Source of the DNA: a phage
Strand: one strand, 5' to 3'
Length of the DNA stretch: 64,000 bases
NCBI GenBank assembly: GCA_032691205.1
Contig: GCA_032691205.1_4541.1
Made by a program: the position numbers and the translations under genes. Shown here one piece after another: positions 2,472 to 62,453 of the stretch; the stretch's first letter is position 1; the number at the start of each line of letters is the position of its first letter. The notes below the pieces were generated by a model, which did no database searches, was not told where the DNA came from, and worked only from the letters and a program-made list of their open reading frames with translations.

Positions 2472-3053
2472 ATGGCAGAACTGTTCTATACGGGAGTTGG
2501 AAGTAGAGACATATCCGAAGAAGAGTGGGCTTTGATGGTAGGCATAGGGAAATGGCTTTCAAACCTTGGGTTTAAATTAAGGTCTGGGAAGGCAGAGGGT
2601 AGTGATTCTGCTTTTGAAACAGGTGTCCAAGAGTCTGAAAATCCTACTAACAAGGAGATTTATGTTCCTTGGGAAAATTTCAAAGGTAATCAGATTCCAG
2701 GGGATGTTATTGTTCTTGCAAAACCAGATACAATGAACTATGCTATCTCTGTGCAATGGATCAAAGATGTTCACCCAGCCTATGAAAAGCTTAAGCAGGG
2801 TGCTAGAAAATTGCACCAACGTAATGTGCATCAAGTGTTAGGTAGAGATTTGGAGAATCCTGCTCCATCATGTTTCTTGTTGGCTTGTGCTAATACTGAT
2901 AAACATGGAGATGCAAAAGGTGGAACAGCTACGGCTTGGAAGATAGCTAAAGCCAATAATGTTCCTTGTTTAAACATTCGTGGGAAAACAAAACAAGAGA
3001 TTTACGATTTTCTACGACCTTTGGTAATGAGGGCAATAACAAGTGATTCCTAA
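2472..3053 (+). CDS. SLOG/DprA-like Rossmann-fold protein (putative)
   Basis: Start moved to ATG 2472 (RBS GAGGTGA); motif GVGSR ... SGKAEGSD resembles DprA/LOG-type nucleotide-binding loop. Confidence 0.5.
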   Translation: MAELFYTGVGSRDISEEEWALMVGIGKWLSNLGFKLRSGKAEGSDSAFETGVQESENPTNKEIYVPWENFKGNQIPGDVIVLAKPDTMNYAISVQWIKDVHPAYEKLKQGARKLHQRNVHQVLGRDLENPAPSCFLLACANTDKHGDAKGGTATAWKIAKANNVPCLNIRGKTKQEIYDFLRPLVMRAITSDS

Positions 3054-4796: not shown

Positions 4797-4817
4797 CCCG
4801 CTTCGGCGGGTTTTTTA
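4797..4817 (+). terminator. rho-independent terminator
   Basis: cccgcttcggcggg hairpin followed by T7 tract. Confidence 0.7.
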
Positions 4818-4876
4818 TTGACAGGAATCTGGAAGCTTGATAAACTTAACCTATCAACCAATAGAGGAGAAATATT

Positions 4877-5818
4877 ATGGTGTTAATTGGTAGCCGTGCA
4901 TTGCAAATTCATGCTATGGACATGGGAAAAGACTTGTATCGCCCTTGTGTAGATTTAGATTACCTGTGTACAGAACAAGAGTGGGAAGAATTATCAAAAA
5001 TGTTCTCTCAAGACGAGTTTGTTGAACTTGTAGAACGTAAAGGGAACAAAGGCCATGTCAAAATGATAGCTGGCGCACATTTGGAATACGATATTGCTTC
5101 TCAAGGAGATAGCACAGAAGCTTTGATTAGTTATTGTGAAGATTCTGATGATGTTCGTCGAACTTACGCTGGACATGTTGTTGCTCCTTTAGATGTGCTC
5201 TACCTTCTTAAAATGAGTCATCGTTTTAAAAAGGATAGTCCTCACTTCTTTAAAACTATGAAAGATATTCATTTCATGCGGTCACTGGGCGCAAAGATCC
5301 CAGAAAATCTTAAGAGTATTTATGAGTTGCGTGAGAAAGAAACATACACTTACTCTCATCCGAACTTAAACGTAAAAAGTAAAGACTTCTTTAAAGGTGA
5401 TGAGGTTCCGTATGTTTATGATCATGATTCTATCCATGAAGCAATCGCGGTAATGGATGCTCCAGCATATAAATCTTATATGAAAGATGGAAGTGAAGTT
5501 ATGACCAGCAAAGAAAAGTTTTTTGCTCAACCAAAACATGTGCGCCTGTTAGGTGTTTATGAAGAAGCGTGTGTTTTGGCTTTGGAACGTTCACAAATTC
5601 CTTTCGGTGAAGAGATCGGAGGTCCAACCCCTAAGCAAAGTTTTATAATGGCTTTATCTAAAGTCTGCACATCCATCACTAGTGGTTGGTTTAGGGAATA
5701 TGCTTGGGAAAACCTTTATGTTGTTATTAAGCTATATGAAAACATGGGCGAAAACGACTATGTTGAACGTTTTAAAGCTAATCAACATGTAGTAAAGCCT
5801 TTTGAAGGAGGTTATTAA
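4877..5818 (+). CDS. putative nucleotidyltransferase-fold protein (313 aa)
   Basis: RBS GAGGAG; N-terminal GSRA...DLDY resembles Pol-beta-type NTase G[SG]-x-D-x-D motif (weak). Confidence 0.55.
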   Translation: MVLIGSRALQIHAMDMGKDLYRPCVDLDYLCTEQEWEELSKMFSQDEFVELVERKGNKGHVKMIAGAHLEYDIASQGDSTEALISYCEDSDDVRRTYAGHVVAPLDVLYLLKMSHRFKKDSPHFFKTMKDIHFMRSLGAKIPENLKSIYELREKETYTYSHPNLNVKSKDFFKGDEVPYVYDHDSIHEAIAVMDAPAYKSYMKDGSEVMTSKEKFFAQPKHVRLLGVYEEACVLALERSQIPFGEEIGGPTPKQSFIMALSKVCTSITSGWFREYAWENLYVVIKLYENMGENDYVERFKANQHVVKPFEGGY

Positions 5819-5819
5819 T

Positions 5820-6215
5820 ATGTGTGGATATCTTTCAGAAAGTTATTTCAAAGTGACGCATGAGGATTTAGAAAAAGCACGATTGAAACTGACAGCTATT
5901 ATTGAACACTCTAATACTGTTGATCACAGATTAAAGACTACTAAAGTATCTGTTCCTTGTTGGTTAGGTTTACGGCATAAAATAATGTCTCAACATGCCC
6001 ATGTTGTTCGAGAGATGCATGGTTGGTGTTGGTTTCACGATGTGGCTCTGCATTTTGGTTATATTACAGAAGAAGAGCATAGATTCTGTGAACTAACATA
6101 TCGTATTCCAACCCTTCACGATTTAGATTTGTGGAAGAAAGCAAACGAGATTTTTCTTACAGAAAGTGATTGGCGTAAAGTTATGGCTTGTCTTGAATGG
6201 AGGGGTAATGAGTAA
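5820..6215 (+). CDS. hypothetical protein (131 aa)
   Basis: Track ORF trimmed to ATG 5820 after GGAGG. Confidence 0.5.
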   Translation: MCGYLSESYFKVTHEDLEKARLKLTAIIEHSNTVDHRLKTTKVSVPCWLGLRHKIMSQHAHVVREMHGWCWFHDVALHFGYITEEEHRFCELTYRIPTLHDLDLWKKANEIFLTESDWRKVMACLEWRGNE

Positions 6216-6891
6216 AACAGTTTTGTCTATGTTTGACGGATCTGGGATCATGGTGTTACGTTATGCCGAAGCAGGTCACAAGTGTTTTTGTGTAAACGCT
6301 GATGAAGGGGATCACGGTAAATACGAGGTTAGGATGGAGCACCCAAACATAACCTATGTGAATGCCTGGATAGATTCTACATTCAACCCTGAAGATCATG
6401 GGATACCTAAACCCGATATTATTTTTGGATTTCCACCTTGCACTATGTTAGCAGGTAGTGGTAGCAAACACGAACGTAGCACAGAGGAATTAGATGAAGC
6501 TTTAGCTAATATTCGTGTAGTGGAAGCTTTGGGTAACAAATATAATGTTCCTTGGATGATTGAAAACCCAGTAGGTAAACTTTCAACCTTATGGCGTAAA
6601 CCCGATTTTTACTTTGATCCTTATGAGTATGGTGGGTATTTGTTTGAAGAGGAAGGAAGCTTTCATCCTAAAATGCCTACCCGTGATGGGTATACAAAGA
6701 AAACTTGTATTTGGCACGGCAATGGTTTTGTTCAACCAGTGAAGAAACCAGTAGATCATATAGGCTGCTTCTGGGGTTGGAAAAGCTTAGGCGGAGCTAG
6801 TGCAAAAACAAAACAACTCAGATCACTAACCGCACGTGGTTTTGCTCGTGCAGTGTTTTTGTCTAACAATCTTCTAGATAAGGAGAAATAA
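6208..6891 (+). CDS. C5-cytosine DNA methyltransferase-like protein (putative)
   Basis: Start ATG 6208 after GGAGGGG; motifs FDGSG, GFPPCT (PC-type) and ENP (ENV-like). Confidence 0.5.
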   Translation: MSKTVLSMFDGSGIMVLRYAEAGHKCFCVNADEGDHGKYEVRMEHPNITYVNAWIDSTFNPEDHGIPKPDIIFGFPPCTMLAGSGSKHERSTEELDEALANIRVVEALGNKYNVPWMIENPVGKLSTLWRKPDFYFDPYEYGGYLFEEEGSFHPKMPTRDGYTKKTCIWHGNGFVQPVKKPVDHIGCFWGWKSLGGASAKTKQLRSLTARGFARAVFLSNNLLDKEK

Positions 6892-7508
6892 TGTCAAATT
6901 CAAAACCAGTAGTTGCTTATCAAGTAGATCGTAATGATGGTGAAGGTAGTGTTGTAGTTTTTGATACACATGGTCTTGCAGCAAGACGCAAAGGTGCTTG
7001 TCTACTGGACATTGGTGGTGAAGATGAATACTGCACTGTACGTAGAGTAAAAGAATTTGATCAATATGCTGAAAAAGGTTTTGTACCCGTGAAAGCACTA
7101 TTAGAAGCTGGATGGTGGATACCTAGTGCACATGATTATGATATTTTGGAAGATACAGATGAATTCAACAGTGAAGATTTTGTTTTTTCTCTGGATGAAA
7201 AATGCGTTTGGAAGGACTGGGATGAAATGGAACGCCATGCTTATTTTATAAACGAAGCATTAGATCGTAAAACTTGGTTTGAGAATACAGTTAAAGCAGC
7301 GTATCCTCAATTTACTTTTACACAGTTTTGGGGTGGCCCACATCATATTACTCATACAGCATATTTCGAGTTCCCAGGCTCACGTTATAAAGGTACTGTT
7401 TATTGGGATTGGGACGAGGACAAAGAACCTTCTGCTCAAGACTTCCGTTGCTATGTTTGTCAAGGTGATCAAGAAGCCCTTGACAAATACCTACAAAGTC
7501 TGGTATAG
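6891..7508 (+). CDS. hypothetical protein (205 aa)
   Basis: ORF track; RBS AAGGAGA. Confidence 0.6.
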   Translation: MSNSKPVVAYQVDRNDGEGSVVVFDTHGLAARRKGACLLDIGGEDEYCTVRRVKEFDQYAEKGFVPVKALLEAGWWIPSAHDYDILEDTDEFNSEDFVFSLDEKCVWKDWDEMERHAYFINEALDRKTWFENTVKAAYPQFTFTQFWGGPHHITHTAYFEFPGSRYKGTVYWDWDEDKEPSAQDFRCYVCQGDQEALDKYLQSLV

Positions 7509-7525
7509 TGCCAACATCTGAACAA

Positions 7526-7556
7526 AGCCTCCTGTTTCAGGGGGCTTTTCTTTTAT
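7526..7556 (+). terminator. rho-independent terminator (imperfect stem)
   Basis: gcctcctg/cagggggc hairpin followed by T-rich tract. Confidence 0.5.
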
Positions 7557-7566
7557 AGGAGGGAAT

Positions 7567-8052
7567 ATGTTTCAAGTAAATGTCAATGTGCATAATAGTT
7601 ACTCTGATTGTGAAACGTGTGGCTATAATTCATCTAATGTTATTCGTATTAGTGGCGATTTAGGAGAAGCTTCTTTTGGAGAAGAAGCAAGTTGCTTTAG
7701 TGGTATGGATGCAGAATGGAATGATATTGCACATTGGTTAGTGAGCAAACTAAAAGAAAAAGAGAAACCATTTCCTACTCTGCTTGATCGTTCTCTTGTG
7801 GAAGATGCAGGTAAAGCATATGCAGACTATGCGTATGCAGACGGGAAATATTTGGAAGATGATAAGGCTAACCATTTGCTTTATGTTTATTATGAAGCTG
7901 AATCTGCCTACGATAATTATTACAGCATGTCTAACATCCTACGTCTGTTTGCAGAGTTTGATATTTATTTCGAAGTAGAATTTTCAGAAGATGATGTTTA
8001 TGAATATGATTCTTATGATCCATTTGAGGAGGAAGAATGCCAAGACGAGTGA
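7567..8052 (+). CDS. acidic hypothetical protein (161 aa)
   Basis: ORF track; RBS AGGAGGG. Confidence 0.55.
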   Translation: MFQVNVNVHNSYSDCETCGYNSSNVIRISGDLGEASFGEEASCFSGMDAEWNDIAHWLVSKLKEKEKPFPTLLDRSLVEDAGKAYADYAYADGKYLEDDKANHLLYVYYEAESAYDNYYSMSNILRLFAEFDIYFEVEFSEDDVYEYDSYDPFEEEECQDE

Positions 8053-8852
8053 TTTTTGTAAGTGGCGCAGGACTATCTGTGGATAGCGGTATCCCAGCTT
8101 TTAGAACAGATACTTCTTCAGGGGAGGCGTTATGGTCTTCTTATAATCTTTCTGAAGTCTGTGACATTTTCAACTTCCGTGACGGGTATCAGCAAGAACA
8201 AGGTATTCTTGATGCTATGGGCGGTTTAGATGCGGAAGGATATAACCTCTACCGTAAAACTCACGACTTTTACAATAAACGTCGCGCGGAATTAGAGAAA
8301 GTTGACCCGAATCCGGCACATCTTCAGATTGGGGAATGGTTCAAAAAACATGGTGCAGAAAAGATTATTAACATCACTACTAACGTTGATGACCTCCTTG
8401 AACGAGCAGGAGTAGATAGGGAAGAAGTGCTACATGTGCATGGTTTTCTTCCTGAAATTACTTTTCAAAGAAAAGCTGGACAACCTACAATTGTAAAAGA
8501 TGTTGGTTATCAAGCCATAGATGTAGATGACTACCATTATGTAAAACCTAATGTAATCTTCTTTGGGGAAGCTGCTCCACTTTACACAGATATGTATCAT
8601 ATTTTTGATACACTGACGGCTCAAGATATGGTTATCGTTGTAGGCTGCTCTAACCAAGTAATCAACTTCAACTGGGAACTCTTCCCTGCCCTGAATATTG
8701 GGGTTAAGATGGTTGTAGTTAACCCAGGTTTGAATTTTGTAGAACAAACTCTCTACGAAGAACGTGGAGTGCTTGTCTACCGAGAGAAAGCAGGAACAGT
8801 CTTCAGTGATGAAGGCTTTATCAAAATGGTTGAAGACCATTTAAACAAATAA
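8037..8852 (+). CDS. SIR2-family (sirtuin-like) protein lacking zinc ribbon
   Basis: Motifs GAGLSVDSGIPAFR, TTNVDDL..HVHG, IFFGE, VVGCS; no Cys pairs. Confidence 0.75.
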   Translation: MPRRVIFVSGAGLSVDSGIPAFRTDTSSGEALWSSYNLSEVCDIFNFRDGYQQEQGILDAMGGLDAEGYNLYRKTHDFYNKRRAELEKVDPNPAHLQIGEWFKKHGAEKIINITTNVDDLLERAGVDREEVLHVHGFLPEITFQRKAGQPTIVKDVGYQAIDVDDYHYVKPNVIFFGEAAPLYTDMYHIFDTLTAQDMVIVVGCSNQVINFNWELFPALNIGVKMVVVNPGLNFVEQTLYEERGVLVYREKAGTVFSDEGFIKMVEDHLNK

Positions 8853-8860
8853 ACCACTCA

Positions 8861-8883
8861 AGGGGCTTCGGCCCCTTTCTTAT
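8861..8883 (+). terminator. rho-independent terminator (weak T tract)
   Basis: aggggcttcggcccct hairpin then ttctt. Confidence 0.45.
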
Positions 8884-8895
8884 TAGGAGAACAAA

Positions 8896-9168
8896 ATGAC
8901 TGAAGAAATCCGTGATTACTACCTTGCACATTACGTTTACTACTTTGCTAATGCTACACAAAAAGGGGAAGGTAATCTTTACTTGGCAACAGGGCATGGA
9001 ACAGGTGTTAGGAAATCAAATATTGATAATGCCTTGGCTCAAGTGGCTGCTGGGCTAGAAGATAAACTTCAAATACCTGTAGTTGTAGTGATGCAAAACA
9101 TAAGTTACCTAGCAAGTTGTACTGAAACCGAATTTAACGCGTCTGAAACGCAATCTAACGAAGAATAA
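8896..9168 (+). CDS. hypothetical protein (90 aa)
   Basis: ORF track; RBS AGGAGA. Confidence 0.55.
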   Translation: MTEEIRDYYLAHYVYYFANATQKGEGNLYLATGHGTGVRKSNIDNALAQVAAGLEDKLQIPVVVVMQNISYLASCTETEFNASETQSNEE

Positions 9169-9171
9169 AAT

Positions 9172-9204
9172 AAAGGCACCCACTTGGGTGCCTTTTCTAT
9201 TTTA
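9172..9204. terminator. terminator hairpin at convergence of plus and minus blocks
   Basis: aaaggcaccc..gggtgccttt stem with flanking A/T tracts. Confidence 0.6.
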
Positions 9205-9237
9205 GAGCGTCTCTGTTCGATTTAGGTGGGTTCTAGC

Positions 9238-9468
9238 TTACTTGTGTAGTGCTCTCTCGTATAACTCAATGATCAATTCATCCTCTACTGTAATACGCGC
9301 CATTTGATCCGTCTTAAGTATTGTTGGTTGGTAGTGGTGCATTTCACTATTGATACTACAATCCCATTCGTCATAACCTAAATACTCTCCTACATGGACC
9401 TTAACCATAAAGGGAAACGGGTTATCTACCAAAAATGCCATACAACCTTCTTCGATTTTATTTAACAC
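9238..9468 (-). CDS. hypothetical protein (76 aa)
   Basis: ORF track. Confidence 0.5.
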   Translation of the reverse strand: MLNKIEEGCMAFLVDNPFPFMVKVHVGEYLGYDEWDCSINSEMHHYQPTILKTDQMARITVEDELIIELYERALHK

Positions 9469-9493
9469 ACGACCTCCTATTGCTATAGATATG

Positions 9494-9515
9494 AAAAAAC
9501 CCGCCGAAGCGGGTT
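9494..9515 (-). terminator. rho-independent terminator (minus strand)
   Basis: acccgccgaagcgggt hairpin; U6 tract on minus strand. Confidence 0.65.
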
Positions 9516-9559
9516 CTATTGCTACGATAGGATCACTATCCTATAGTATTGTTTCTGTG

Positions 9560-9841
9560 TCAAGCCTTAGCGTAGAAAAACTTCTCATATTCAGATTTTG
9601 TTACGATTGTGGGGCAACCTTTTGTTCCATCCTCGATAACAGGGGCTTCTACCATTCTGGTGTTGAATAAGCAATAAGTTCCACGCATGTAAATACCCAG
9701 TTTTGTTTCTACGATGTGCTCTTTACTTACGCTTGAAAACTTAATCTCACCATCGGAGTCTCTTATAGCAATAAGTGCATGTTCGGGCCAATCTTTTCCT
9801 TTTGCTCCTAAAGCATTATACAATTCTTGAACGAGTTCCAT
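9560..9841 (-). CDS. hypothetical protein (93 aa)
   Basis: ORF track. Confidence 0.55.
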   Translation of the reverse strand: MELVQELYNALGAKGKDWPEHALIAIRDSDGEIKFSSVSKEHIVETKLGIYMRGTYCLFNTRMVEAPVIEDGTKGCPTIVTKSEYEKFFYAKA

Positions 9842-9853
9842 ATGACCTCCTTA

Positions 9854-10027
9854 TTAAATAACAAATTTTTCTTCTTCTGGCTTATCGTAATCTGGAGAAT
9901 AAACATGTGCGGGATTAAAACCTTTAAAATTTCCGCGACCTTTACGTGGACAGTTGAATGTGCGAGCTTGATGATCCCCAAAAGATTTCCCACAATGCAT
10001 ACATTTAAAATCAGTGCGTTTAGTCAT
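9854..10027 (-). CDS. small Cys-rich (zinc-ribbon-like) protein
   Basis: Track ORF trimmed to ATG 10027 after AGGAG; CxxC...C pattern. Confidence 0.5.
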   Translation of the reverse strand: MTKRTDFKCMHCGKSFGDHQARTFNCPRKGRGNFKGFNPAHVYSPDYDKPEEEKFVI

Positions 10028-10190
10028 GCCATATCTCCTTTTAAAAGGCTGCACCTATTGAAGATGCAGCTTTGATAGATTATTTAGATGAGTCTAAAAT
10101 GTCTTTTACTTTTGCCGTGATAACGTCTTGATATTTGTTAATAAGATAGCCTACAACTACACCTACGATAAATGAAACCATTATTTCTCC

Positions 10191-10799
10191 TTATTTAAGT
10201 GGTGAGAGAACAATCTCTCGGTTTTTTAAGAACCAAAGCATGTCATCTTGATCATAGTCTGATCCCTCTGTAGTAGAATTTTTGATAGAATCAAAAAACC
10301 AACGAGGTATACCAAAACAACTTCCAGATGACTGTATGTCTTTCTGCGACATTTTAAATGTGATTGGAAAATCACAATTATCAATCTCTCGGATATCTGC
10401 TGAAGATAAGATTGTAACTTCAACCAGTTCGTCGTTAGATGTAGTATCGTTGTCTTCCTGAATAATGTCAAATGCTTTTTGCACATCTTTTGCATCTAAT
10501 GTTAAACCTGTGGCTTTCTGAAAAGCCGAAACAAAAATTAGAGCTTCTTCAGAGCAAGGGGCTTCCAGCAAATGAGCCATAATAGGTGACAAGCAAATGT
10601 TAAGATCTTTGTCATACCAACGAACAATCCATACAGGCGTTGCTCCGTTTTGTTTGTCACGAGCCAAAATTGTAACGTGCTGACCTTCTTCTGGTATATG
10701 ATACAAACCAGAAAAACCAGGGCCTGTAGTAGATTTTTTGACACGTGCTACGTGTCCAACTTCTAAAGGATCTTTACCATCCCAAATCTTCTCTTCCAT
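10191..10799 (-). CDS. hypothetical protein (202 aa)
   Basis: ORF track. Confidence 0.6.
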   Translation of the reverse strand: MEEKIWDGKDPLEVGHVARVKKSTTGPGFSGLYHIPEEGQHVTILARDKQNGATPVWIVRWYDKDLNICLSPIMAHLLEAPCSEEALIFVSAFQKATGLTLDAKDVQKAFDIIQEDNDTTSNDELVEVTILSSADIREIDNCDFPITFKMSQKDIQSSGSCFGIPRWFFDSIKNSTTEGSDYDQDDMLWFLKNREIVLSPLK

Positions 10800-10807
10800 A
10801 TAACCTC

Positions 10808-16423: not shown

Positions 16424-16636
16424 TTACAGCCATTCTACTTTTAAGCAGTATTCTTCGACATGTTGTTTACGCTTGTTTTTGTCTATGTAAGTGTATTCAA
16501 CAAATGTCCCAAGATAATCCTTGTCCACATTGTGTTGGCTATTAATTGGACATTTAGTACGACAAACCCGTTGCCACTGACGAAGAATTACGGTTTTGTT
16601 TTTAGGATCAAAGGGATGAGGGTAATGTGCCTTCAT
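16424..16636 (-). CDS. hypothetical protein (70 aa)
   Basis: ORF track. Confidence 0.5.
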   Translation of the reverse strand: MKAHYPHPFDPKNKTVILRQWQRVCRTKCPINSQHNVDKDYLGTFVEYTYIDKNKRKQHVEEYCLKVEWL

Positions 16637-16960
16637 TCATGCCTCCTGTTTTAGTCGAAAAATATTTTGAATAACGAGAGATGTATAGTTATCACTTAGT
16701 CCCATAAGTTCTACTTCCAAGTTTCGAATATCTTCCACCGTAGGAGGATATGTTGGTAAAAATGCTTGAGCATTACCAGATCCAACCTCATTGCTGTAAG
16801 CAGTTGTAAAATTGTAAGATACAAAACATGAAACACCTTTTTGTCGGTACCCGATTAATCGACGAATACACCAGATAAGAGCCAAACCTATGAGAACACC
16901 TCCTAAACCAGCTAACAAGAAGGATAAGTTCATAATAGCTTCGTTAACAACTGCTTGCAT
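16637..16960 (-). CDS. membrane protein (107 aa, one TM helix)
   Basis: ORF track; hydrophobic stretch LSFLLAGLGGVLIGLALIW. Confidence 0.55.
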   Translation of the reverse strand: MQAVVNEAIMNLSFLLAGLGGVLIGLALIWCIRRLIGYRQKGVSCFVSYNFTTAYSNEVGSGNAQAFLPTYPPTVEDIRNLEVELMGLSDNYTSLVIQNIFRLKQEA

Positions 16961-16970
16961 TCTTTTCTCC

Positions 16971-17270
16971 TTAGTTATGTAAACCCAAATGTGCTACAAC
17001 TTCTCTACGATAAGATAACTGCATAGCGATTTTATAGCCAGGATGAAAACCATTTACATCAATGTCATCAAACCAAACCTCAAATGAACCGTGTTTAAGA
17101 GTCATTAAGTTAATATACCATTCAATAGTATAATGATCGTTAGCAATACCTTCGATGTAAAATTCTCGACAACAGTGAGATAAATCTTCACTTGTTTCAC
17201 GTTTCCAGTCTTTGATAGCACCCTTCTCTTTGGCTTTATTCAGAATGTGGATCAGGTCTTCAACTTGCAT
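16971..17270 (-). CDS. hypothetical protein (99 aa)
   Basis: Track ORF trimmed to ATG 17270 after AGGAGAG. Confidence 0.5.
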   Translation of the reverse strand: MQVEDLIHILNKAKEKGAIKDWKRETSEDLSHCCREFYIEGIANDHYTIEWYINLMTLKHGSFEVWFDDIDVNGFHPGYKIAMQLSYRREVVAHLGLHN

Positions 17271-17280
17271 ATTCTCTCCT

Positions 17281-17835
17281 TTAGTTCCAACTAATAATGA
17301 TGTGTTTGATAATCCCAAAAATACTGTGCTCTGCGGTTGCCAATGTTACATCCAAACCTTTTGCACGTAGTATTGTAGCTACAACATTTGCCCCTCTTTT
17401 CTGTTCACTTATCTGTTCATAAGAAGAAGGGTTATTGCACAAACCAAAACTGGAAGGTTCAAAGTATTTTTCAAACTTCCCTTGTTCCGCACAATCTTCA
17501 ATCTCTAATAGAACGGCGTCTACCATTTCAGTAAAATGGGAATTTGCTTGCAGTGCTTTATTACGCAGTTTATCACGTAAACTTCCCGTAGATTCTTCCT
17601 GCTCTTCTGTCTGTCCCTCTTCACAGAAAGGATGAAGTTCAGCCCAGTCCCAAGCATCTCCTTCTAAAGCAAATGGAGTGTTGTAATTGAAGAAAGTGCA
17701 GCGCGGATATTCCCCGTTGAAAGAATCTTTCAGCAGAATATATTTCTTACCATTTGCATGGAAGAGTTCTCCTTTGATAACCTTACCTACAAGGATATCG
17801 CTGTTAGTGGAACGGGTGCAAATAAACTTTTTCAT
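17281..17835 (-). CDS. hypothetical protein (184 aa)
   Basis: ORF track. Confidence 0.55.
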   Translation of the reverse strand: MKKFICTRSTNSDILVGKVIKGELFHANGKKYILLKDSFNGEYPRCTFFNYNTPFALEGDAWDWAELHPFCEEGQTEEQEESTGSLRDKLRNKALQANSHFTEMVDAVLLEIEDCAEQGKFEKYFEPSSFGLCNNPSSYEQISEQKRGANVVATILRAKGLDVTLATAEHSIFGIIKHIIISWN

Positions 17836-17897
17836 GATTTTCTCCTCTTTGTTTCGATGAGATGATTATGACAAAGACAAATCCTTCTGTCAACGAT

Positions 17898-18119
17898 TTA
17901 TTTCCATTCCCCTTGGTGTTCTTTGATTTCATAAGAGTAGTATTCGAACATGCTCATACAAACCACACCAGACATTTCTAAACAAAGAGGTTTACTATTA
18001 TAAAAGGCACTTATCATTCTTCCAGCTTTATCTGCTGACTCTTTAGTATCACATCCGCAAACTGTTCTCACCCAAGGATCAGGGCCATCATATTTAAGAC
18101 GTACAATCCACATGATCAT
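17898..18119 (-). CDS. hypothetical protein (73 aa)
   Basis: Track ORF trimmed to ATG 18119 overlapping upstream TGA. Confidence 0.45.
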   Translation of the reverse strand: MIMWIVRLKYDGPDPWVRTVCGCDTKESADKAGRMISAFYNSKPLCLEMSGVVCMSMFEYYSYEIKEHQGEWK

Positions 18120-18343
18120 TCTTCCATCTCGAACCATTCAGGGAACACTTTGTGGAAGACACGTGTTGTTTCTAAGAGAAATTCCAACTCTTTTTCCAAG
18201 TCTGGGTTCCAACCATTTATTTTAACACGGATTGCCAATGTACTTGCACGGCGACTCAATTCTTGACAGATTGGATCACGCAGAACTATTGAATCATAAA
18301 ACTGACAAACAGCTTCAAGTTCATACCAGTTATAATCCGACAT
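18116..18343 (-). CDS. hypothetical protein (75 aa)
   Basis: ORF track. Confidence 0.5.
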   Translation of the reverse strand: MSDYNWYELEAVCQFYDSIVLRDPICQELSRRASTLAIRVKINGWNPDLEKELEFLLETTRVFHKVFPEWFEMEE

Positions 18344-18669
18344 TATTCATCCTCCTCTGCAATACGATCTCTTACCCAATTAATTCTGTCCACGTTCAGG
18401 TGACAGGCATCTGTATCTGACTCTAAGACATATGCATCGTAGTTCTCATTGAAAGGGAGTCCTTGATTCAACCCTTTATGGTAAAACTGTGCGTGCATTT
18501 CATCTGACAAGGTTGTTATAATGGGGTTGTAATTACCTCTGTGCACATAATCGAACAAGTTGGCACACAAACCACAATCCCGCCGAAAAGGTTTACCATC
18601 AGGAGCACCAACATCAATCCATGCTAGATAAATTTTATAAAACTCCATCAAATCTTTACTTGTTTTCAT
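18343..18669 (-). CDS. paralog family A member
   Basis: ORF track; FY..W, GLC, PFN, WVRDR motifs. Confidence 0.6.
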   Translation of the reverse strand: MKTSKDLMEFYKIYLAWIDVGAPDGKPFRRDCGLCANLFDYVHRGNYNPIITTLSDEMHAQFYHKGLNQGLPFNENYDAYVLESDTDACHLNVDRINWVRDRIAEEDE

Positions 18670-19013
18670 TATTTTACCTCGATCACGTTGATAAATACAT
18701 CTTCACGACAATCTTTATCGTCCCCGTAGATTTGACCTAATCGTACACATGCGTTAAAGGCGGATTTTGCGGGAATTTGATATTTACGGACAGGACCATT
18801 GTCTTTTGTGTAGGAAACCTCAAAGAGACGAATAGTGTCATCCTCAATTACATGAAACCGACCACAATCCATAATCAAAGAGATACACAGGGTATCCCCT
18901 TCTTCGTCTGTAATATAAAACAAACCTGGATTATCTATAACTTGGGAAGCTAGATACTGCTTACCCTCTTTAAGGAACTCGACAGAAGACTCTGCACATA
19001 AAAGTTTAATCAT
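18669..19013 (-). CDS. hypothetical protein (114 aa)
   Basis: ORF track. Confidence 0.55.
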   Translation of the reverse strand: MIKLLCAESSVEFLKEGKQYLASQVIDNPGLFYITDEEGDTLCISLIMDCGRFHVIEDDTIRLFEVSYTKDNGPVRKYQIPAKSAFNACVRLGQIYGDDKDCREDVFINVIEVK

Positions 19014-19074
19014 TTTTCTCTCCTTATCTGTGTTGATAATGTATGTATACCATACATAAAAGAAATGTCAAGGT

Positions 19075-19275
19075 TTATCGACACAGATAGTTGTAACGAT
19101 CCGCTTTATCCTCTGCTTCAGCAAAGTCAGCAATCAAGGAAGTTTTGAGTTCTTCCAACTCTTTCACCCAAGAGTCGTAATCGTTCTGTGTTTCTCCAAT
19201 AGTTTGGAGAAAACAATCGTCGTAGCCAATAGACATGGCTAACTCGATAATACGTTCCAGTTTTTCTTCCATCAC
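19075..19275 (-). CDS. hypothetical protein (66 aa)
   Basis: ORF track. Confidence 0.5.
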   Translation of the reverse strand: MMEEKLERIIELAMSIGYDDCFLQTIGETQNDYDSWVKELEELKTSLIADFAEAEDKADRYNYLCR

Positions 19276-19634
19276 TTCTCTCCTTCTACAGACTTCTGTT
19301 TAACATAAAAGTAAGCACCACGAGCAAGATACAAATCATGTTCAATATCGCTCACAGGAAAACCATCTGGATTTTTAAAACCGTCTTCTACAGCCAAAAT
19401 GAGAGATCGTAAACTGATAGCTAACAACTCCATTTGATCTTGTAGTTTTCTATTTTCTGCATAAAGGTTTTTGCATTTTTGTTCTGCATTTTTCCATTGT
19501 TCTAATGCATGATCATAGTTTCGCATAAGGATAGCTTTTTCTTGTTCACGTTTAAAAGTTTCTTCACAAATGAAACCCGTGCCTAAACCAGTTTCTTCAT
19601 CTTTGACAAATACTTCAACAAAATCTTTAGACAT
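19272..19634 (-). CDS. hypothetical protein (120 aa)
   Basis: Track ORF 19272-19754 trimmed to ATG 19634 (RBS AGGAG) to avoid overlap with 19636-19899. Confidence 0.5.
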   Translation of the reverse strand: MSKDFVEVFVKDEETGLGTGFICEETFKREQEKAILMRNYDHALEQWKNAEQKCKNLYAENRKLQDQMELLAISLRSLILAVEDGFKNPDGFPVSDIEHDLYLARGAYFYVKQKSVEGEK

Positions 19635-19635
19635 A

Positions 19636-19899
19636 TTATCTCCTATTTGCTTTTGGATACTCCCAGCCCTCTGGGAGATCTTCTTTACACATCCACTCAA
19701 AAGGCCAGCGACAATAACTGTGCCACTTCCCATCGAGATACAAGCAATCTTCATCTACTGGTCCACAAGGATTGATAACTACAACACACCCTTTTGCTCG
19801 CCAATACTGAACTATTTCGGGGTAAAAGCAAGAAACGTCGGTCCACTCCCAAATACGTTCATCATTCAAACGATATGCTGCTGGCAATGTTTCTTTCAT
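19636..19899 (-). CDS. hypothetical Cys/Trp-rich protein (87 aa)
   Basis: ORF track. Confidence 0.5.
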   Translation of the reverse strand: MKETLPAAYRLNDERIWEWTDVSCFYPEIVQYWRAKGCVVVINPCGPVDEDCLYLDGKWHSYCRWPFEWMCKEDLPEGWEYPKANRR

Positions 19900-19903
19900 A
19901 TTG

Positions 19904-20362
19904 TTAAACCTGAATCAAAGAGTCACGCCAATTACGGCTGTCTCCTTCTCCTAAATACCAACAATCTGCAACATTGATTACTTCATAAGGAATACGCCAA
20001 GCATGAACGAAATCTGGAATCTCTGGCTTATGACTGTAACCATAACGATCACCACTTGAATCTGTTGTAATATAATTAACAAATTCAGGAACATCTAGAG
20101 TTTCACCTTGATATTGCACACGCTTAAACCCTTCTTCTACCTCCTTTGGCAAACCTTCTACTAGACAAGCAAGAAGTTGAATGTGAGGACAAGTGAAGTC
20201 TTGTCCTGGATAACGTGAACGAATATCGTCTAACAATGCGATCACAGCATCTAATAATTCTTTATAATCCTCGTATCTTACAAATGTCCCTTCTGTAGGG
20301 TCATCTTTACATAGAGGCCAAGCATCACTCCAATTTACACCATAATGTTTAACTTTAGACAT
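19904..20362 (-). CDS. hypothetical protein (152 aa)
   Basis: ORF track. Confidence 0.6.
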   Translation of the reverse strand: MSKVKHYGVNWSDAWPLCKDDPTEGTFVRYEDYKELLDAVIALLDDIRSRYPGQDFTCPHIQLLACLVEGLPKEVEEGFKRVQYQGETLDVPEFVNYITTDSSGDRYGYSHKPEIPDFVHAWRIPYEVINVADCWYLGEGDSRNWRDSLIQV

Positions 20363-20449
20363 TTAAACTCCTATTCATAAACTAAGCTACCTAAAAGAAA
20401 TATACACACAGTGAAAAATATGATTTCGAACATCTTACGGTGAACTCTC

Positions 20450-20848
20450 TTAGTGTTGAGTACAATCAGCTTCTAGAGTAAGAACATTTGTTATTGTTTT
20501 ATCATTTTTAAGAAATGCAAACCAAGCTAAAGTGTCCCGATATTCTGTGCGTAGCATAACCACTTCAGTAGTGCCAATAAATTGTTGTGAACCGTACATA
20601 GCACTACCATCTTTACTTTTTTCTCCTGTGTATTGCAGAATGCCACTCATCAAAGCACCACCTGAATTTTTAAGGATAAAGGAGTTATCTTTATTAATGA
20701 CAACAGAAGCCATTTTCTTAGGACCAGAAATCACTTCACCTTTCAGATTTTTAACAACCACATCTGACACACACTCATAAACTTGAGACGCATTTGCTGT
20801 TCCAAGTGATGCAATGAGTAACAAGAAACCTACGATGATCTTTTTCAT
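20450..20848 (-). CDS. secreted/periplasmic protein with signal peptide (132 aa)
   Basis: N-terminus MKKIIVGFLLLIASLGTANA. Confidence 0.6.
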   Translation of the reverse strand: MKKIIVGFLLLIASLGTANASQVYECVSDVVVKNLKGEVISGPKKMASVVINKDNSFILKNSGGALMSGILQYTGEKSKDGSAMYGSQQFIGTTEVVMLRTEYRDTLAWFAFLKNDKTITNVLTLEADCTQH

Positions 20849-20943
20849 ATAAACTCTCCTCTTTATTTACCCGACGCGCCCCTGTTGGGCGGAAAGGGTT
20901 GTACGCAAAATTTTTAGCTCCAATCGTCGGGTGTCCCGACTCC

Positions 20944-21150
20944 TTACGCTTTTAATGTTTTAACAGAATGACAAGCTTTGCAAACAATAACCGGAACAAG
21001 TTCATCTCCATTATCCGCATAAATCACTGTTTTCTTCATTTCGCCACCGCATGAACAATACTCTGTATGATCCGCAGGAATATTAAATATTCCGTAATCA
21101 CTTTCATACTGTTTCTTACATATGGACACTGCTTTCGTAAAACAAGACAT
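20944..21150 (-). CDS. small Cys-rich protein (68 aa)
   Basis: ORF track; CSCGG and CKACH. Confidence 0.5.
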   Translation of the reverse strand: MSCFTKAVSICKKQYESDYGIFNIPADHTEYCSCGGEMKKTVIYADNGDELVPVIVCKACHSVKTLKA

Positions 21151-21152
21151 GC

Positions 21153-21374
21153 CTACTCCGCAAGAACATTCACTTCGTCAGAGAAGAATACGTAATCACA
21201 ACCTTCCCAAACATCTTCTTCAAACCACTCCCATCCCTCAACTTTGGACATTTCTTCTATCGTAACAAAGAATGTTGTCATATCATCGCTAACAAGATGT
21301 GCTTCAACAACAAAAGGAATCTGAACATTCTCAAAACCAACATAACCCAATACATCACAAACTCTAATTTTCAT
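21153..21374 (-). CDS. paralog family B member (EWFxE...DYVFF)
   Basis: ORF track; similar to 25461-25691. Confidence 0.5.
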   Translation of the reverse strand: MKIRVCDVLGYVGFENVQIPFVVEAHLVSDDMTTFFVTIEEMSKVEGWEWFEEDVWEGCDYVFFSDEVNVLAE

Positions 21375-21375
21375 A

Positions 21376-21576
21376 TTATGCTCCTTTGTAGATTATGTTG
21401 GTGCGTTCACACTCTGCTACCAGCAAGCGATTAGCAATGTTGTCCATAGGAACATCAATCTCTACGCTCCAGGCATTGATATACACTTCTTCAATCTTTG
21501 CTCCAAGCATTTGTGCGATCAAAGCAACAGCCCCAGCATATTCAAGTTTAATCTCAATTACCATTTTGCACCTCAA
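21376..21576 (-). CDS. hypothetical protein (66 aa)
   Basis: ORF track. Confidence 0.5.
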   Translation of the reverse strand: MRCKMVIEIKLEYAGAVALIAQMLGAKIEEVYINAWSVEIDVPMDNIANRLLVAECERTNIIYKGA

Positions 21577-39921: not shown

Positions 39922-40464
39922 TCACAAATATCGTCTTTGCGGTATTTTGTCTGGGAAAAGTATTTCGATCAGTTTATTATGATATTTGCCTAAAAGATTC
40001 TGCCCTTTCCAGGTGGCAGGGTTTAGCACCCCTGGTTCATACATCCCCATTCCAATTCCGTAAACCTTATCGTAGGGGCTTGCTTCAACAAACGTTTTGT
40101 ATTGGTAAAGGTGTAAGTCTGCATACAAATCTGGATTCTGTACATATTTCAAGCATAAACCTCGCATAACAATACGCTCACGGTTCTCTTCCCATACATT
40201 GTTATCAAAATCCGACACTGCCCTACCCATACGTTTGTAATAAGCTTGGATCTTCTCATCTTTCCGTATCAAACTATGAGTCAGAATAGCCTGTGCAGTG
40301 TTGTGGTCATTAAAAAGCAAAGCTTTACGCCACATCATATATTGTTCGACACAATTAAATGTCTGATTGTAACCTGGTTCGGTTTCTGTAAAGGGTGCAA
40401 TATACCAATTACTAAAAACATCTTTATGTGAAAAGAAGAATACATAATCATCAGTTATTCGCAT
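39922..40464 (-). CDS. NADAR/YbiA-like (DUF1768) domain protein
   Basis: FFFSHKDVFSNWY, EQYMMWRKALLF, KRMGRAVSDFDNNVWE and EASPYDKVYGIG match the NADAR pattern as I recall it. Confidence 0.65.
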   Translation of the reverse strand: MRITDDYVFFFSHKDVFSNWYIAPFTETEPGYNQTFNCVEQYMMWRKALLFNDHNTAQAILTHSLIRKDEKIQAYYKRMGRAVSDFDNNVWEENRERIVMRGLCLKYVQNPDLYADLHLYQYKTFVEASPYDKVYGIGMGMYEPGVLNPATWKGQNLLGKYHNKLIEILFPDKIPQRRYL

Positions 40465-60976: not shown

Positions 60977-61633
60977 ATGACAATAAAACATATTTCTTTT
61001 GATGTATGGAATACTCTTATTTCTGCCAATCAAAACTATGCAGATGCACGTACGCACACTATTGCTACATATGGTAGAATGTCTGAACGTGCGGCAAAAG
61101 AAGCATATAAAGATGCCAAAGAAATTATGGATAATGCTGCACTAAATGGGTGTGCAGAAGGTGTAGCATATGCATGGAATATGTTGGGAAGAAAGATAGG
61201 TTTAACCCCTGTAGAATCTGCACAAATGCGTTTTGAGTGTGAGCAATGGTTTCTTAAATTTCCTCCACATATCGCTTTAGATTTGCCAGTTTGTTTGCTA
61301 TACTTGTCTGGTAAATATGATCTTAGTATTAAAAGCAATACTAATTTTATATCTGGGGATATTTTGCGTCGTGCTTGTATGTTCGACAGTTGGAATTGTT
61401 TTGAATTTATGCATTTTTCAGACGAACATCTGTTATGTAAACCAGATCCTAGATTCTTTGTTAGGACCGCCACATATTCAAGCATTCCTTTGAAGGCTGA
61501 AGAGATTTTACATGTTGGGGACAGCGAAGAATTTGATGGTAAATGTGTTGACATAGGGATTAACTTCTGTCATATTAAGAACCCTAACGATTTACTAGAG
61601 AAACTTAAAAGAGGAGAAATTGTAAATGCGTAA
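60977..61633 (+). CDS. HAD-like hydrolase with non-canonical motif I
   Basis: FDVWNTL (second Asp replaced by Trp), KPDP, GDS. Confidence 0.55.
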   Translation: MTIKHISFDVWNTLISANQNYADARTHTIATYGRMSERAAKEAYKDAKEIMDNAALNGCAEGVAYAWNMLGRKIGLTPVESAQMRFECEQWFLKFPPHIALDLPVCLLYLSGKYDLSIKSNTNFISGDILRRACMFDSWNCFEFMHFSDEHLLCKPDPRFFVRTATYSSIPLKAEEILHVGDSEEFDGKCVDIGINFCHIKNPNDLLEKLKRGEIVNA

Positions 61634-62453
61634 TCAAACTCAAATTTTTGCAAATAAATTTGATGACCTGGAAACTGCTACTTTTGATATCAAAGACTAT
61701 TCAAAATTGAAATTTGGTTGTAACCAAGCTGCGCGTCGTATGGGTAAAGAATTGGCACTTCAGTTTTTTGCTCAAGTGGCAATGAAACATATTGGGGAAC
61801 AATTTGTTATCATCCCTTCTCCTTATAACCATGTGCACAATGCTGCAACAATGATGACAGATCATTTTATTAATTACTTTAATATGTTGCAAGCACAATA
61901 TGATCAAGGTCGTTCAGCAGAACTGGATATTATTCATCGTAAAGTTAGCTATATCAACGATTATGGTTTCTTGGATAAAGCTAGTCGTAAGAAACTTATT
62001 GATGGGGATACATTCTACTGCAACAAAGAATTCTGGGGTGATAAGAAGCTTGTGTTCATTGATGATGTAAATATCACCGGAACTCATGAAGACAAACTGA
62101 TTGAGATTCTTGATGAAAATCAAGTTAAAAATGATGTTTACTTCTTGTATTTTGCAAAATATGAAGGTAATCAAGCAGATACTGAAGCTAAACTGAATTT
62201 TAACTACATCAATACACCAGAAGCGTTTGTTAAAATGATTAATGAAGAACGTGATGCACAGTGTCTTGTTCGTCCTATTAAGTATCTTATGGGCCAAAAT
62301 CACGAAGACTTCAAAATCATTCTTAGCCAATTGCCACACTACTATGTAGAGCAACTTTTCTTCGGATGTTTGGGAGAAGGTTACAACCGAATTTCAAAGT
62401 ATGCTGAAAACTTTGAATTCTTGGATCGTTACACAAAACAACACATTCTGTAA
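61626..62453 (+). CDS. type I phosphoribosyltransferase-fold protein (putative)
   Basis: KKLVFIDDVNITGTHEDKL resembles the PRPP-binding loop. Confidence 0.55.
   Translation: MRNQTQIFANKFDDLETATFDIKDYSKLKFGCNQAARRMGKELALQFFAQVAMKHIGEQFVIIPSPYNHVHNAATMMTDHFINYFNMLQAQYDQGRSAELDIIHRKVSYINDYGFLDKASRKKLIDGDTFYCNKEFWGDKKLVFIDDVNITGTHEDKLIEILDENQVKNDVYFLYFAKYEGNQADTEAKLNFNYINTPEAFVKMINEERDAQCLVRPIKYLMGQNHEDFKIILSQLPHYYVEQLFFGCLGEGYNRISKYAENFEFLDRYTKQHIL

Follow-up and report, generated by a model that had tools for sequence, protein, structure and literature searches.

For the sirtuins encoded by phages, two in-silico proposals have been published, namely a deacetylase that activates host enzymes and a remover of RNA 2′-phosphates (PMC5107563; PMC9503650). 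Skliros et al. (2016) modelled the Sir2/CobB protein of phiSt2/KVP40, described its missing zinc ligand in silico, and listed T5, SPC35, GAP32, My1 and JD001 as carriers (PMC5107563). Iyer, Burroughs, Anantharaman and Aravind (2022) stated that most viral sirtuins form a distinct clade (PMC9503650). On the strength of the genes around the sirtuin in Escherichia phage V5, Proteus phage Mydo, phage SP15 and Serratia phage BF, they proposed KptA-like removal of RNA 2′-phosphates, the neighbourhood being one of RNA ligase, 2H, cREC, kinase, MazG, HAD or calcineurin-like phosphoesterase genes (PMC9503650, section 3.7.3). Class M sirtuins (SirTM), which are protein ADP-ribosyltransferases, have a zinc domain, carry QG at the HG position and are encoded next to a macrodomain gene (PMC4518038). 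Here we describe the sirtuin gene at positions 8037-8852 (+) of a 64,000-nucleotide stretch of phage DNA (contig GCA_032691205.1_4541.1 of assembly GCA_032691205.1), the whole of which is referred to as the window.

The gene is a known one, already annotated as 'Sir2-like protein', and both its family and the lack of zinc ligands have been published. The family is among the most widespread phage enzymes without a tested function, and its carriers include T5-like, rV5-like and phAPEC8-like phages used in therapy cocktails. Our analysis of sequences and predicted structures would narrow the function to that of an active, zinc-free enzyme with a class III-type pocket, separable from the RNA-ligase cassette and bearing a hypervariable substrate-facing module. 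The reading that leads, to which we give somewhat less than an even chance, is a protein deacylase that works without zinc and whose client-binding cleft has been rewired.

Identity, distribution and fold of the phage sirtuin

The open reading frame (ORF) starts with ATG and encodes 271 amino acids. It matches the Pfam SIR2 profile PF02146 over profile positions 1-178 of 180 with 76.5 bits (cut-off 24; E = 3.2e-21), and PHROG 2162, 'Sir2 (NAD-dependent deacetylase)', end to end over residues 2-271 (E = 4.2e-96). These two matches show that the sirtuin assignment is real and goes far beyond chance. The encoded protein shares 99.3% amino-acid identity with nepoznato_84, a 'Sir2-like protein', and has the superfamily's motifs for binding nicotinamide adenine dinucleotide (NAD), which are GAGxS, (T/S)xN(I/V)D, HG, FGE, G(T/C)S and a C-terminal Asn. 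An earlier note on this DNA had listed sirtuin catalytic motifs, all of which could be located: GAGLSVDSGIPAFR at amino acids 10-23, TNVDD at 115-119, HG within HVHG at 133-136, FFGE at 175-178 and VVGCS at 201-205. It had also called the protein nearly free of cysteines, and there are just two, C42 and C204, neither at a zinc-module position. The phage origin that it took for granted is borne out, as the window region matches Escherichia phage ECML-183-2 at 98.9% identity and many phages of the phAPEC8/ESCO5 type (genus Phapecoctavirus, Stephanstirmvirinae) at 90-96%.

When 50,697 phage records were searched with tblastn, a sirtuin homologue was found in 987. Among the carriers are T5-like Demerecviridae, Vequintavirinae, Stephanstirmvirinae, Salmonella 7-11-like phages, KVP40-like vibriophages and jumbo phages. 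The window protein belongs to the PHROG 2162 clade by its full-length profile match, its occurrence in a phage, and both clade patterns, NxTTNVDD and VINFNWE[LI]FP, which were also found in 55 IMG/VR loci. Two pattern scans of 185,579 bacterial and archaeal species, at one genome per species, returned a single contig of a metagenome-assembled genome (MAG), and therefore the clade is essentially phage-restricted. Within it, the window sirtuin is 47% identical to that of the Vequintavirus 'ime' and about 56% identical to T5-like ones, while among Phapecoctavirus alleles protein divergence reaches 33% and the former zinc module has an indel of 5-6 residues.

Some record labels met in these searches call for caution. 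Four 'Campylobacter phage' records (MG065650.1, MG065689.1, MG065639.1 and MG065652.1) encode proteins up to 100% identical to genes of E. coli Phapecoctavirus and Vequintavirus phages, and their host labels look doubtful. A 'Sir2-like transferase' label in a related record raised the possibility of a second sirtuin in the window, which was rejected, as tblastn with 269 sirtuins gave 270 matches at the 8-kb locus and two stray ones, near 7 kb and near 52 kb. In phage ime, a gene next to the true sirtuin (ime_18, positions 6779-7492 of locus L004) is also annotated as a 'putative Sir2-like protein'; it was rejected too, being MazG-like and 30% identical to the nucleotide pyrophosphohydrolase of phage Schickermooser. 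Its label is a propagated annotation error, and ime_18 is not a sirtuin.

A structure model was built with AlphaFold from 43 homologues. Its mean predicted local distance difference test score (pLDDT) is 88.7 and its predicted template modelling score (pTM) 0.86, with low confidence at amino acids 201-220 and pLDDT of 68-70 over the VINFNWELFP region. The model has the two-domain sirtuin fold, a Rossmann domain and a small domain. In a Foldseek search against the PDB, E. coli CobB (1s5p) came out on top (E = 4.4e-16; target-normalised TM score 0.85), followed by Sir2Af1, Sir2Af2 and SIRT5, and all 50 among the matches listed are canonical sirtuins.

A missing Rossmann NAD-binding fold, or clear orthology to a housekeeping CobB, had been named in the earlier note as grounds for giving up its claim, and neither was found. 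The Rossmann/sirtuin fold is predicted with the pLDDT given above, and the score against the NCBIfam CobB equivalog is 80.8 bits where the cut-off is 320 (NF040867, PRK00481). The best NCBIfam matches are CobB-type deacylase models, NF001753 being the top one with 95.7 bits against a cut-off of 243. A host-derived housekeeping CobB was thus rejected on its 29% identity, on scores below all NCBIfam equivalog cut-offs, and on the lone MAG contig among bacterial genomes. The comparison with defence-type or NADase-type SIR2 domains, in turn, did not hold up. The SIR2_2 profile gives a non-significant E = 0.2, the PADLOC defence models have no credible match to the sirtuin, and Foldseek leads to canonical sirtuins, so that ThsA, DSR, SIR2-HerA and pAgo-associated types are ruled out by profile and structure evidence. 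The protein is a sirtuin of canonical type closest to class III; it does not belong with the defence-type SIR2 proteins and is not orthologous to the CobB of the host.

Active site, acyl pocket and zinc module

Conservation was measured over 120 cluster-representative homologues, 49-99% identical to the window sirtuin. The NAD-binding and catalytic residues G10, A11, G12, S17, F22, R23, N116, D118, H135, G136, F176, E178, G203, S205 and N229 are unchanged throughout, with G10-G12 kept in 119 of the 120 and the remaining homologue gapped there. Their invariance spans several phage families. Also invariant (120/120) are C42, Y79, R82, R83, T115, K170, V173, V208, I209, F211 and N212. Because the NAD-binding and catalytic residues do not vary, activity is favoured and a decoy disfavoured; the sirtuin is probably a catalytically active NAD-consuming enzyme.

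The motifs, all on the + strand, can be followed along the gene. The NAD-binding loop GAGLSVDSGIPAFR (8064-8105) aligns to GAGISAESGIRTFR of CobB, with G10, A11, G12, S17, F22 and R23 conserved. TTNVDD at amino acids 114-119 (8376-8393) is the TQN(I/V)D motif with Thr in the place of Gln, and holds the invariant T115, N116 and D118. HVHG (8433-8444), with the catalytic His135, aligns to HMHG of CobB. The FGE substrate/NAD loop, FFGE (8559-8570), aligns to V187...F190-G-E of CobB, V173, F176 and E178 being invariant. Next is VVGCSNQVINFNWELFP at amino acids 201-217 (8637-8687), a GTS-type motif running into the clade signature VINFNWE[LI]FP; it aligns to GSSLVVYPAAELP of Sir2Af2, and the signature replaces the V-Y-P substrate-staple loop. 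VVNP at 227-230 (8715-8726) aligns to IIVN of Sir2Af2 and provides N229, the conserved Asn of the adenosine-ribose site.

The features that place the protein nearest class III lie in the acyl pocket. FYNKRR at amino acids 78-83 (8268-8285) aligns to FYNARR of CobB, which sets Y79 and R82 on Y92 and R95, the Tyr-x-x-Arg pair of class III. By residue counting in the CobB alignment, C42 (8160-8162) falls at A76, the small residue of the acyl pocket, which we take to correspond to A86 of SIRT5, the residue that opens the class III pocket. The class III signature of SIRT5 and CobB admits succinyl- and malonyl-lysine. Both elements of this signature, Tyr-x-x-Arg and a small pocket residue, are thus present in alignment, from which and not from coordinates the pocket geometry is read. 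V117, V173 and F176 match I131, V187 and F190 of the CobB acyl-lysine tunnel, and the lysine-tunnel residues V117, H135, V173 and F176 are all invariant. The CobB pocket residues A76, Y92, I131 and V187 are named in the titles of engineered CobB structure entries.

Between HG and FFGE the sirtuin has 44 residues and CobB 46. The segment at amino acids 136-174 (8442-8558) has no Cys where E. coli CobB has C155, C174, C176 and C177 and where Cys4 relatives align CxxC...CxxC; 91 of the homologues have no Cys in it either, and 29 have one. The Cys4 zinc site of canonical sirtuins (class I-IV, U) is therefore missing from the sequence. The model shows the segment as a β-hairpin (strands 136-144 and 152-155; block pLDDT 94-96), and no column of conserved Cys, His, Asp or Glu that might supply replacement metal ligands was found in it except for the nearly invariant E140. 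The earlier claim that the zinc-ribbon module is absent stands for the four Cys ligands, which are gone; the module itself persists as a cysteine-free hairpin. On this evidence the sirtuin appears to be zinc-independent.

When homologues were clustered at 50%, 141 representatives remained, of which 49 are zinc-less, mostly with Thr at the Gln position of TQNID, and 92 keep CxxC...CxxC, mostly with Gln. The two groups have HGxLxE, GY and KPNVVFFGE in common, and therefore the phage clade descends from Cys4 sirtuins. The contexts of Cys4 relatives are mixed: one lies on a phage-like contig, one on a Mollicutes-like contig next to LplA (lipoate-protein ligase), and a third on a short contig that also has genes for an ankyrin-repeat protein and a diacylglycerol kinase.

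The family is acidic, with a median pI of 4.9 and a net charge of -14, which is not expected of a general RNA-binding enzyme. Its helical module holds a variable insert of 9 or about 29 residues. Variability peaks at amino acids 51-70, 101-110 and 141-170, the last being the former zinc module and the most variable segment of all, with the entropy peak at 141-160, while the catalytic motifs are almost invariant. Most of the variation thus falls in the regions that make up the substrate cleft of canonical sirtuins.

Two-gene unit, allelic cassettes and neighbouring genes

The sirtuin gene is the second of a pair. The upstream ORF (7567-8052, +; PHROG 9509, E = 2e-62) encodes 161 amino acids, and its stop overlaps the sirtuin start by 16 nt. 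A Shine-Dalgarno sequence, GAGGAGG (8026-8032), lies within it, 4 nt before the sirtuin ATG, so the two proteins are probably co-translated. Terminator-like hairpins bracket the pair; that at 7524-7548 (+), an 11-bp stem followed by a T run, closes the unit upstream, and that at 8860-8877 (+) comes directly after the sirtuin stop. Both are annotated in Schickermooser. A promoter-like site ahead of the unit, TTGACA-18-TATAGT (7480-7509, +), was picked out by a consensus scan (11/12 matches, extended TG), a match that is not in itself a sign of function.

The 161-residue protein is very acidic and rich in Tyr, and has the invariant cysteines C15xxC18, C43 and C158. Its homologues form 9 clusters only, confined to Phapecoctavirus-like phages. 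No Pfam domain was found in it, and with its model (pLDDT 78.8) Foldseek gave no significant match in the PDB (best E = 0.076, TM score at most 0.25).

Comparison with Schickermooser revealed two allelic cassettes. Over positions 4800-10800 the two DNAs are 97-100% identical except in two sharply bounded blocks. One block (6900-7400) is a 205-amino-acid ORF (PHROG 8514), two genes upstream of the sirtuin, with about 70% nucleotide identity. The other (about 8050-8850) is the sirtuin, 56-79% identical in nucleotides and 67% in protein, although the genes flanking these 67%-identical alleles are 98-100% identical. At 56-63% nucleotide identity between sirtuin alleles, synonymous sites are saturated. 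The 205-residue ORF allele of the window is 93-100% identical to that of loci L012 and L013, whose flanks are only about 50% identical.

In nepoznato, the closest carrier of the same sirtuin allele, a free-standing HNH homing-endonuclease gene of 736 bp (8265-9000 of its locus L001; PHROG 99, E = 2.5e-33) has been inserted precisely where the sirtuin coding sequence starts, at the point that falls between 8036 and 8037 in the window, and it is missing from the window phage. Co-conversion driven by the endonuclease would be a simple explanation of the cassette-like exchange. Selection on the substrate-facing surface would be the more interesting alternative.

To compare gene contexts, the ORFs of 58 sirtuin loci were clustered, which gave three main contexts. 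Vequintavirinae-type loci have, in this order, a metallophosphoesterase, a P-loop kinase, Rnl1, a cREC-like gene, the sirtuin, a DNA ligase and MazG, each partner occurring in 13-16 loci of this 15-locus lineage. T5-like loci have NrdD, small ORFs, the sirtuin, further small ORFs and a HAD-type gene. Phapecoctavirus-like loci, including the window, have a DUF7275/DUF7277 protein, a 137-residue ORF, a C5-methyltransferase-like gene, the 205- and 161-residue ORFs, the sirtuin and a 90-residue ORF, and none of their genes is linked to RNA repair. Within 6 kb on either side of the window sirtuin there are no RNA-repair, NAD-salvage or macrodomain genes. Pfam gave no informative match for ten neighbouring ORFs, and the PHROGs are of unknown function for all but the methyltransferase.

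The small methyltransferase-like gene (6205-6891, +), of the C5-cytosine type, has FDGSG, GFPPC and ENPVG motifs and belongs to PHROG 757, with no Pfam match; in Salmonella 7-11-like loci it lies directly upstream of the sirtuin (5274-5999 of locus L055). The DUF protein (4877-5818, +; 313 residues; DUF7277 E = 8.6e-14, DUF7275 E = 2.2e-75) is conserved upstream in every Phapecoctavirus-like locus, the divergent L052 among them. Farther upstream, in a same-strand block 5-7.5 kb from the sirtuin, are a NinI-like metallophosphatase (1413-2153, +; 6 kb away), a DprA-like protein (2472-3050, +; PHROG 768) and a 189-residue protein labelled 'histidyl tRNA synthetase' (504-1073, +; PHROG 4806, no Pfam match). 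An ADP-ribose-processing NADAR-domain protein (PF08719, E = 7.7e-36) is encoded at 39925-40464 (-), about 31 kb from the sirtuin. At about 60977-62450 (+), HAD hydrolase and PRTase_3 genes stand beside a tellurite-resistance-type cluster (TerD, vWA-TerF-like, TelA and TerC, per the Schickermooser annotation).

Substrate of the sirtuin and relation to known systems

Sirtuins of the standard kind consume NAD, and the same chemistry is assumed here. NAD+ would bind in the site made by GAG, TTNVD, GCS and N229, an oxygen nucleophile of the substrate would attack C1′ of the nicotinamide ribose so that nicotinamide leaves, and His135 would then activate ribose hydroxyls to resolve the adduct. The substrate that we consider most likely, still at a little under even chances, is an acyl-lysine on a host or phage protein, the acyl group probably being short or negatively charged (succinyl/malonyl type), because the pocket triad C42/Y79/R82 and the tunnel residues V117, H135, V173 and F176 are invariant. 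The hypervariable former zinc module, the helical insert and the substitution of VINFNWELFP for V-Y-P would point to clients other than those of host CobB. The enzyme would be co-expressed with the small acidic protein from the two-gene unit, in an early/accessory region. The nicotinamide phosphoribosyltransferase (NAMPT) and phosphoribosyl pyrophosphate (PRPP) synthetase genes found about 5 kb from the Mydovirus sirtuin fit a nicotinamide-releasing enzyme. If the sirtuin is indeed a deacylase, it would give phages a direct route to editing the host acyl-proteome.

Several points weigh against deacylation. Where canonical sirtuins use the Gln of TQNID to contact the NAD ribose, 120/120 close homologues have Thr. 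The V-Y-P loop that staples the peptide is swapped for VINFNWELFP, modelled with the low pLDDT of 68-70, and with this replacement peptide binding may not be conserved. The pocket geometry comes from alignments alone, and the Tyr/Arg pair could bind phosphate as well as carboxylate. A literature search turned up no enzymatic, genetic or structural experiment on any phage sirtuin. Lastly, the Vequintavirinae sirtuin is embedded in an RNA ligase/kinase/phosphoesterase cassette, which is the basis of the RNA-repair proposal (PMC9503650).

That proposal is the main rival, and we regard it as possible but doubtful. In a KptA/Tpt1-like reaction, the 2′-phosphate left on an RNA that was broken or joined again, such as a tRNA cleaved by an anticodon nuclease of the host, would attack NAD+, and the 2″-OH of the ribose, activated by His135, would release ADP-ribose 1″-2″ cyclic phosphate together with RNA having a clean 2′-OH. 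The two steps parallel those of a sirtuin, and Tyr/Arg could perhaps hold the phosphate. By its identities to the 'ime' and T5-like proteins, the window sirtuin belongs to the very clade named in the proposal; the Vequintavirinae-type neighbourhood was reproduced here, a HAD-type gene lies two genes downstream of the sirtuin in T5-like loci, and the genus of the window phage also carries an orthologous Rnl1/PseT/phosphoesterase cassette and 10 tRNA genes. However, the repair neighbourhood of the Vequintavirinae homologues does not extend to the window. No repair gene lies within 6 kb of the sirtuin, and neither homologues of the cassette nor tRNA genes were found in the 64-kb window. In Schickermooser, the cassette (phosphoesterase, Rnl1, PseT-like kinase, DNA ligase and MazG) is intact without a sirtuin, about 30 kb from the sirtuin gene and outside the window (16562-21440 of locus L066, genome 46.4-51.3 kb). 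It is orthologous to the cassette around the Vequintavirinae sirtuin, its Rnl1 and kinase being 61% and 73% identical to the Mydovirus ones. Rnl1-type ligases occur in 749 phage records with a distribution unlike that of the sirtuin; among Salmonella phage records 289 have the sirtuin and 15 have Rnl1, and the T5-like phages, which make up most of the sirtuin carriers, have no Rnl1-type ligase. Because the cassette can be complete without the sirtuin and the distributions differ, the sirtuin is genetically separable from RNA ligation. The strong acidity of the protein and its invariant hydrophobic lysine tunnel also speak against an RNA substrate, and an invariant RNA would not obviously favour a hypervariable cleft. 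No published experiment on the proposal was found in the literature search. Were RNA indeed its substrate, the enzyme would be the first sirtuin to act on a nucleic acid.

The earlier note had left three options side by side, an NAD+-consuming effector, a deacylase and a decoy. With deacylation leading, an effector or ADP-ribosyltransferase for host takeover or counter-defence is retained as an unlikely explanation; it would, for example, hydrolyse NAD+, ADP-ribosylate a host protein, or destroy or convert an immune signal derived from NAD. Sharp cassette boundaries and variation on the substrate-facing small domain make up a pattern typical of conflict genes, the NADAR protein of the same phage brings ADP-ribose chemistry into play, and some canonical sirtuins ADP-ribosylate (PMC4518038). 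On the other hand, the likeness to NADase-type SIR2 is limited to the shared fold, HG is kept with no macrodomain gene nearby, where class M has QG and a macrodomain partner, and the mosaicism is more simply explained by the homing endonuclease at the sirtuin start in the nearest relatives. Bulk depletion of NAD+ would also harm the phage, and related phages encode NAD+ salvage near the sirtuin. That the gene encodes an inactive decoy, or is a relic that travels with the homing endonuclease beside it, is highly improbable. The lost structural zinc site, the Q-to-T change in the TQN motif and the low model confidence at amino acids 201-220 would fit this, but representatives from several phage families, as distant as 49% identity, all keep the NAD-binding and catalytic residues, the frame is intact with a strong ribosome-binding site, and the fold is predicted with confidence. 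Cutting across these explanations, it is conceivable, with the chances clearly against it, that large virulent phages have retargeted a canonical-fold sirtuin that discarded its zinc to a non-classical substrate, either the 2′-phosphate of damaged RNA or, as part of an arms race, a host protein. In the latter case, specificity would be set by the hypervariable former zinc module, which phages would exchange as an allelic cassette.

Returning to the deacylase reading, we can set the protein beside the systems that it resembles. KptA/Tpt1 has the ADP-ribosyltransferase (ART) fold, which is unrelated to the Rossmann fold of sirtuins. As a functional analogy, the phage sirtuin might share with it the NAD-dependent two-step transfer of ADP-ribose (PMC9503650); the window gene is not adjacent to RNA-repair genes. 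In common with ThsA, DSR1/2, SIR2-HerA, SIR2-APAZ and Avs5-SIR2 (Pfam SIR2_2), it has a Rossmann-type SIR2 core with Asn and His and no Cys4 module. A class M (SirTM) identity was rejected, as H135-G136 is invariant, the zinc site is missing and no macrodomain gene is among the neighbours. Class III sirtuins (CobB, Archaeoglobus Sir2Af1, human SIRT5) give the best structure and sequence matches and have the same NAD site, catalytic His and acyl-pocket determinants, whereas the phage protein departs from them by the lost Cys4, Gln replaced by Thr, the replaced V-Y-P, a variable helical insert and its restriction to phages. It is closest to PHROG 2162 / pVOG 1363, the family found in T5, rV5, phAPEC8, Salmonella phage 7-11, My1 and phages of the KVP40/phiSt2 type. 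Like that family, the window sirtuin has TTNVDD and VINFNWE[LI]FP and no Cys ligands, and it is one allele of it.

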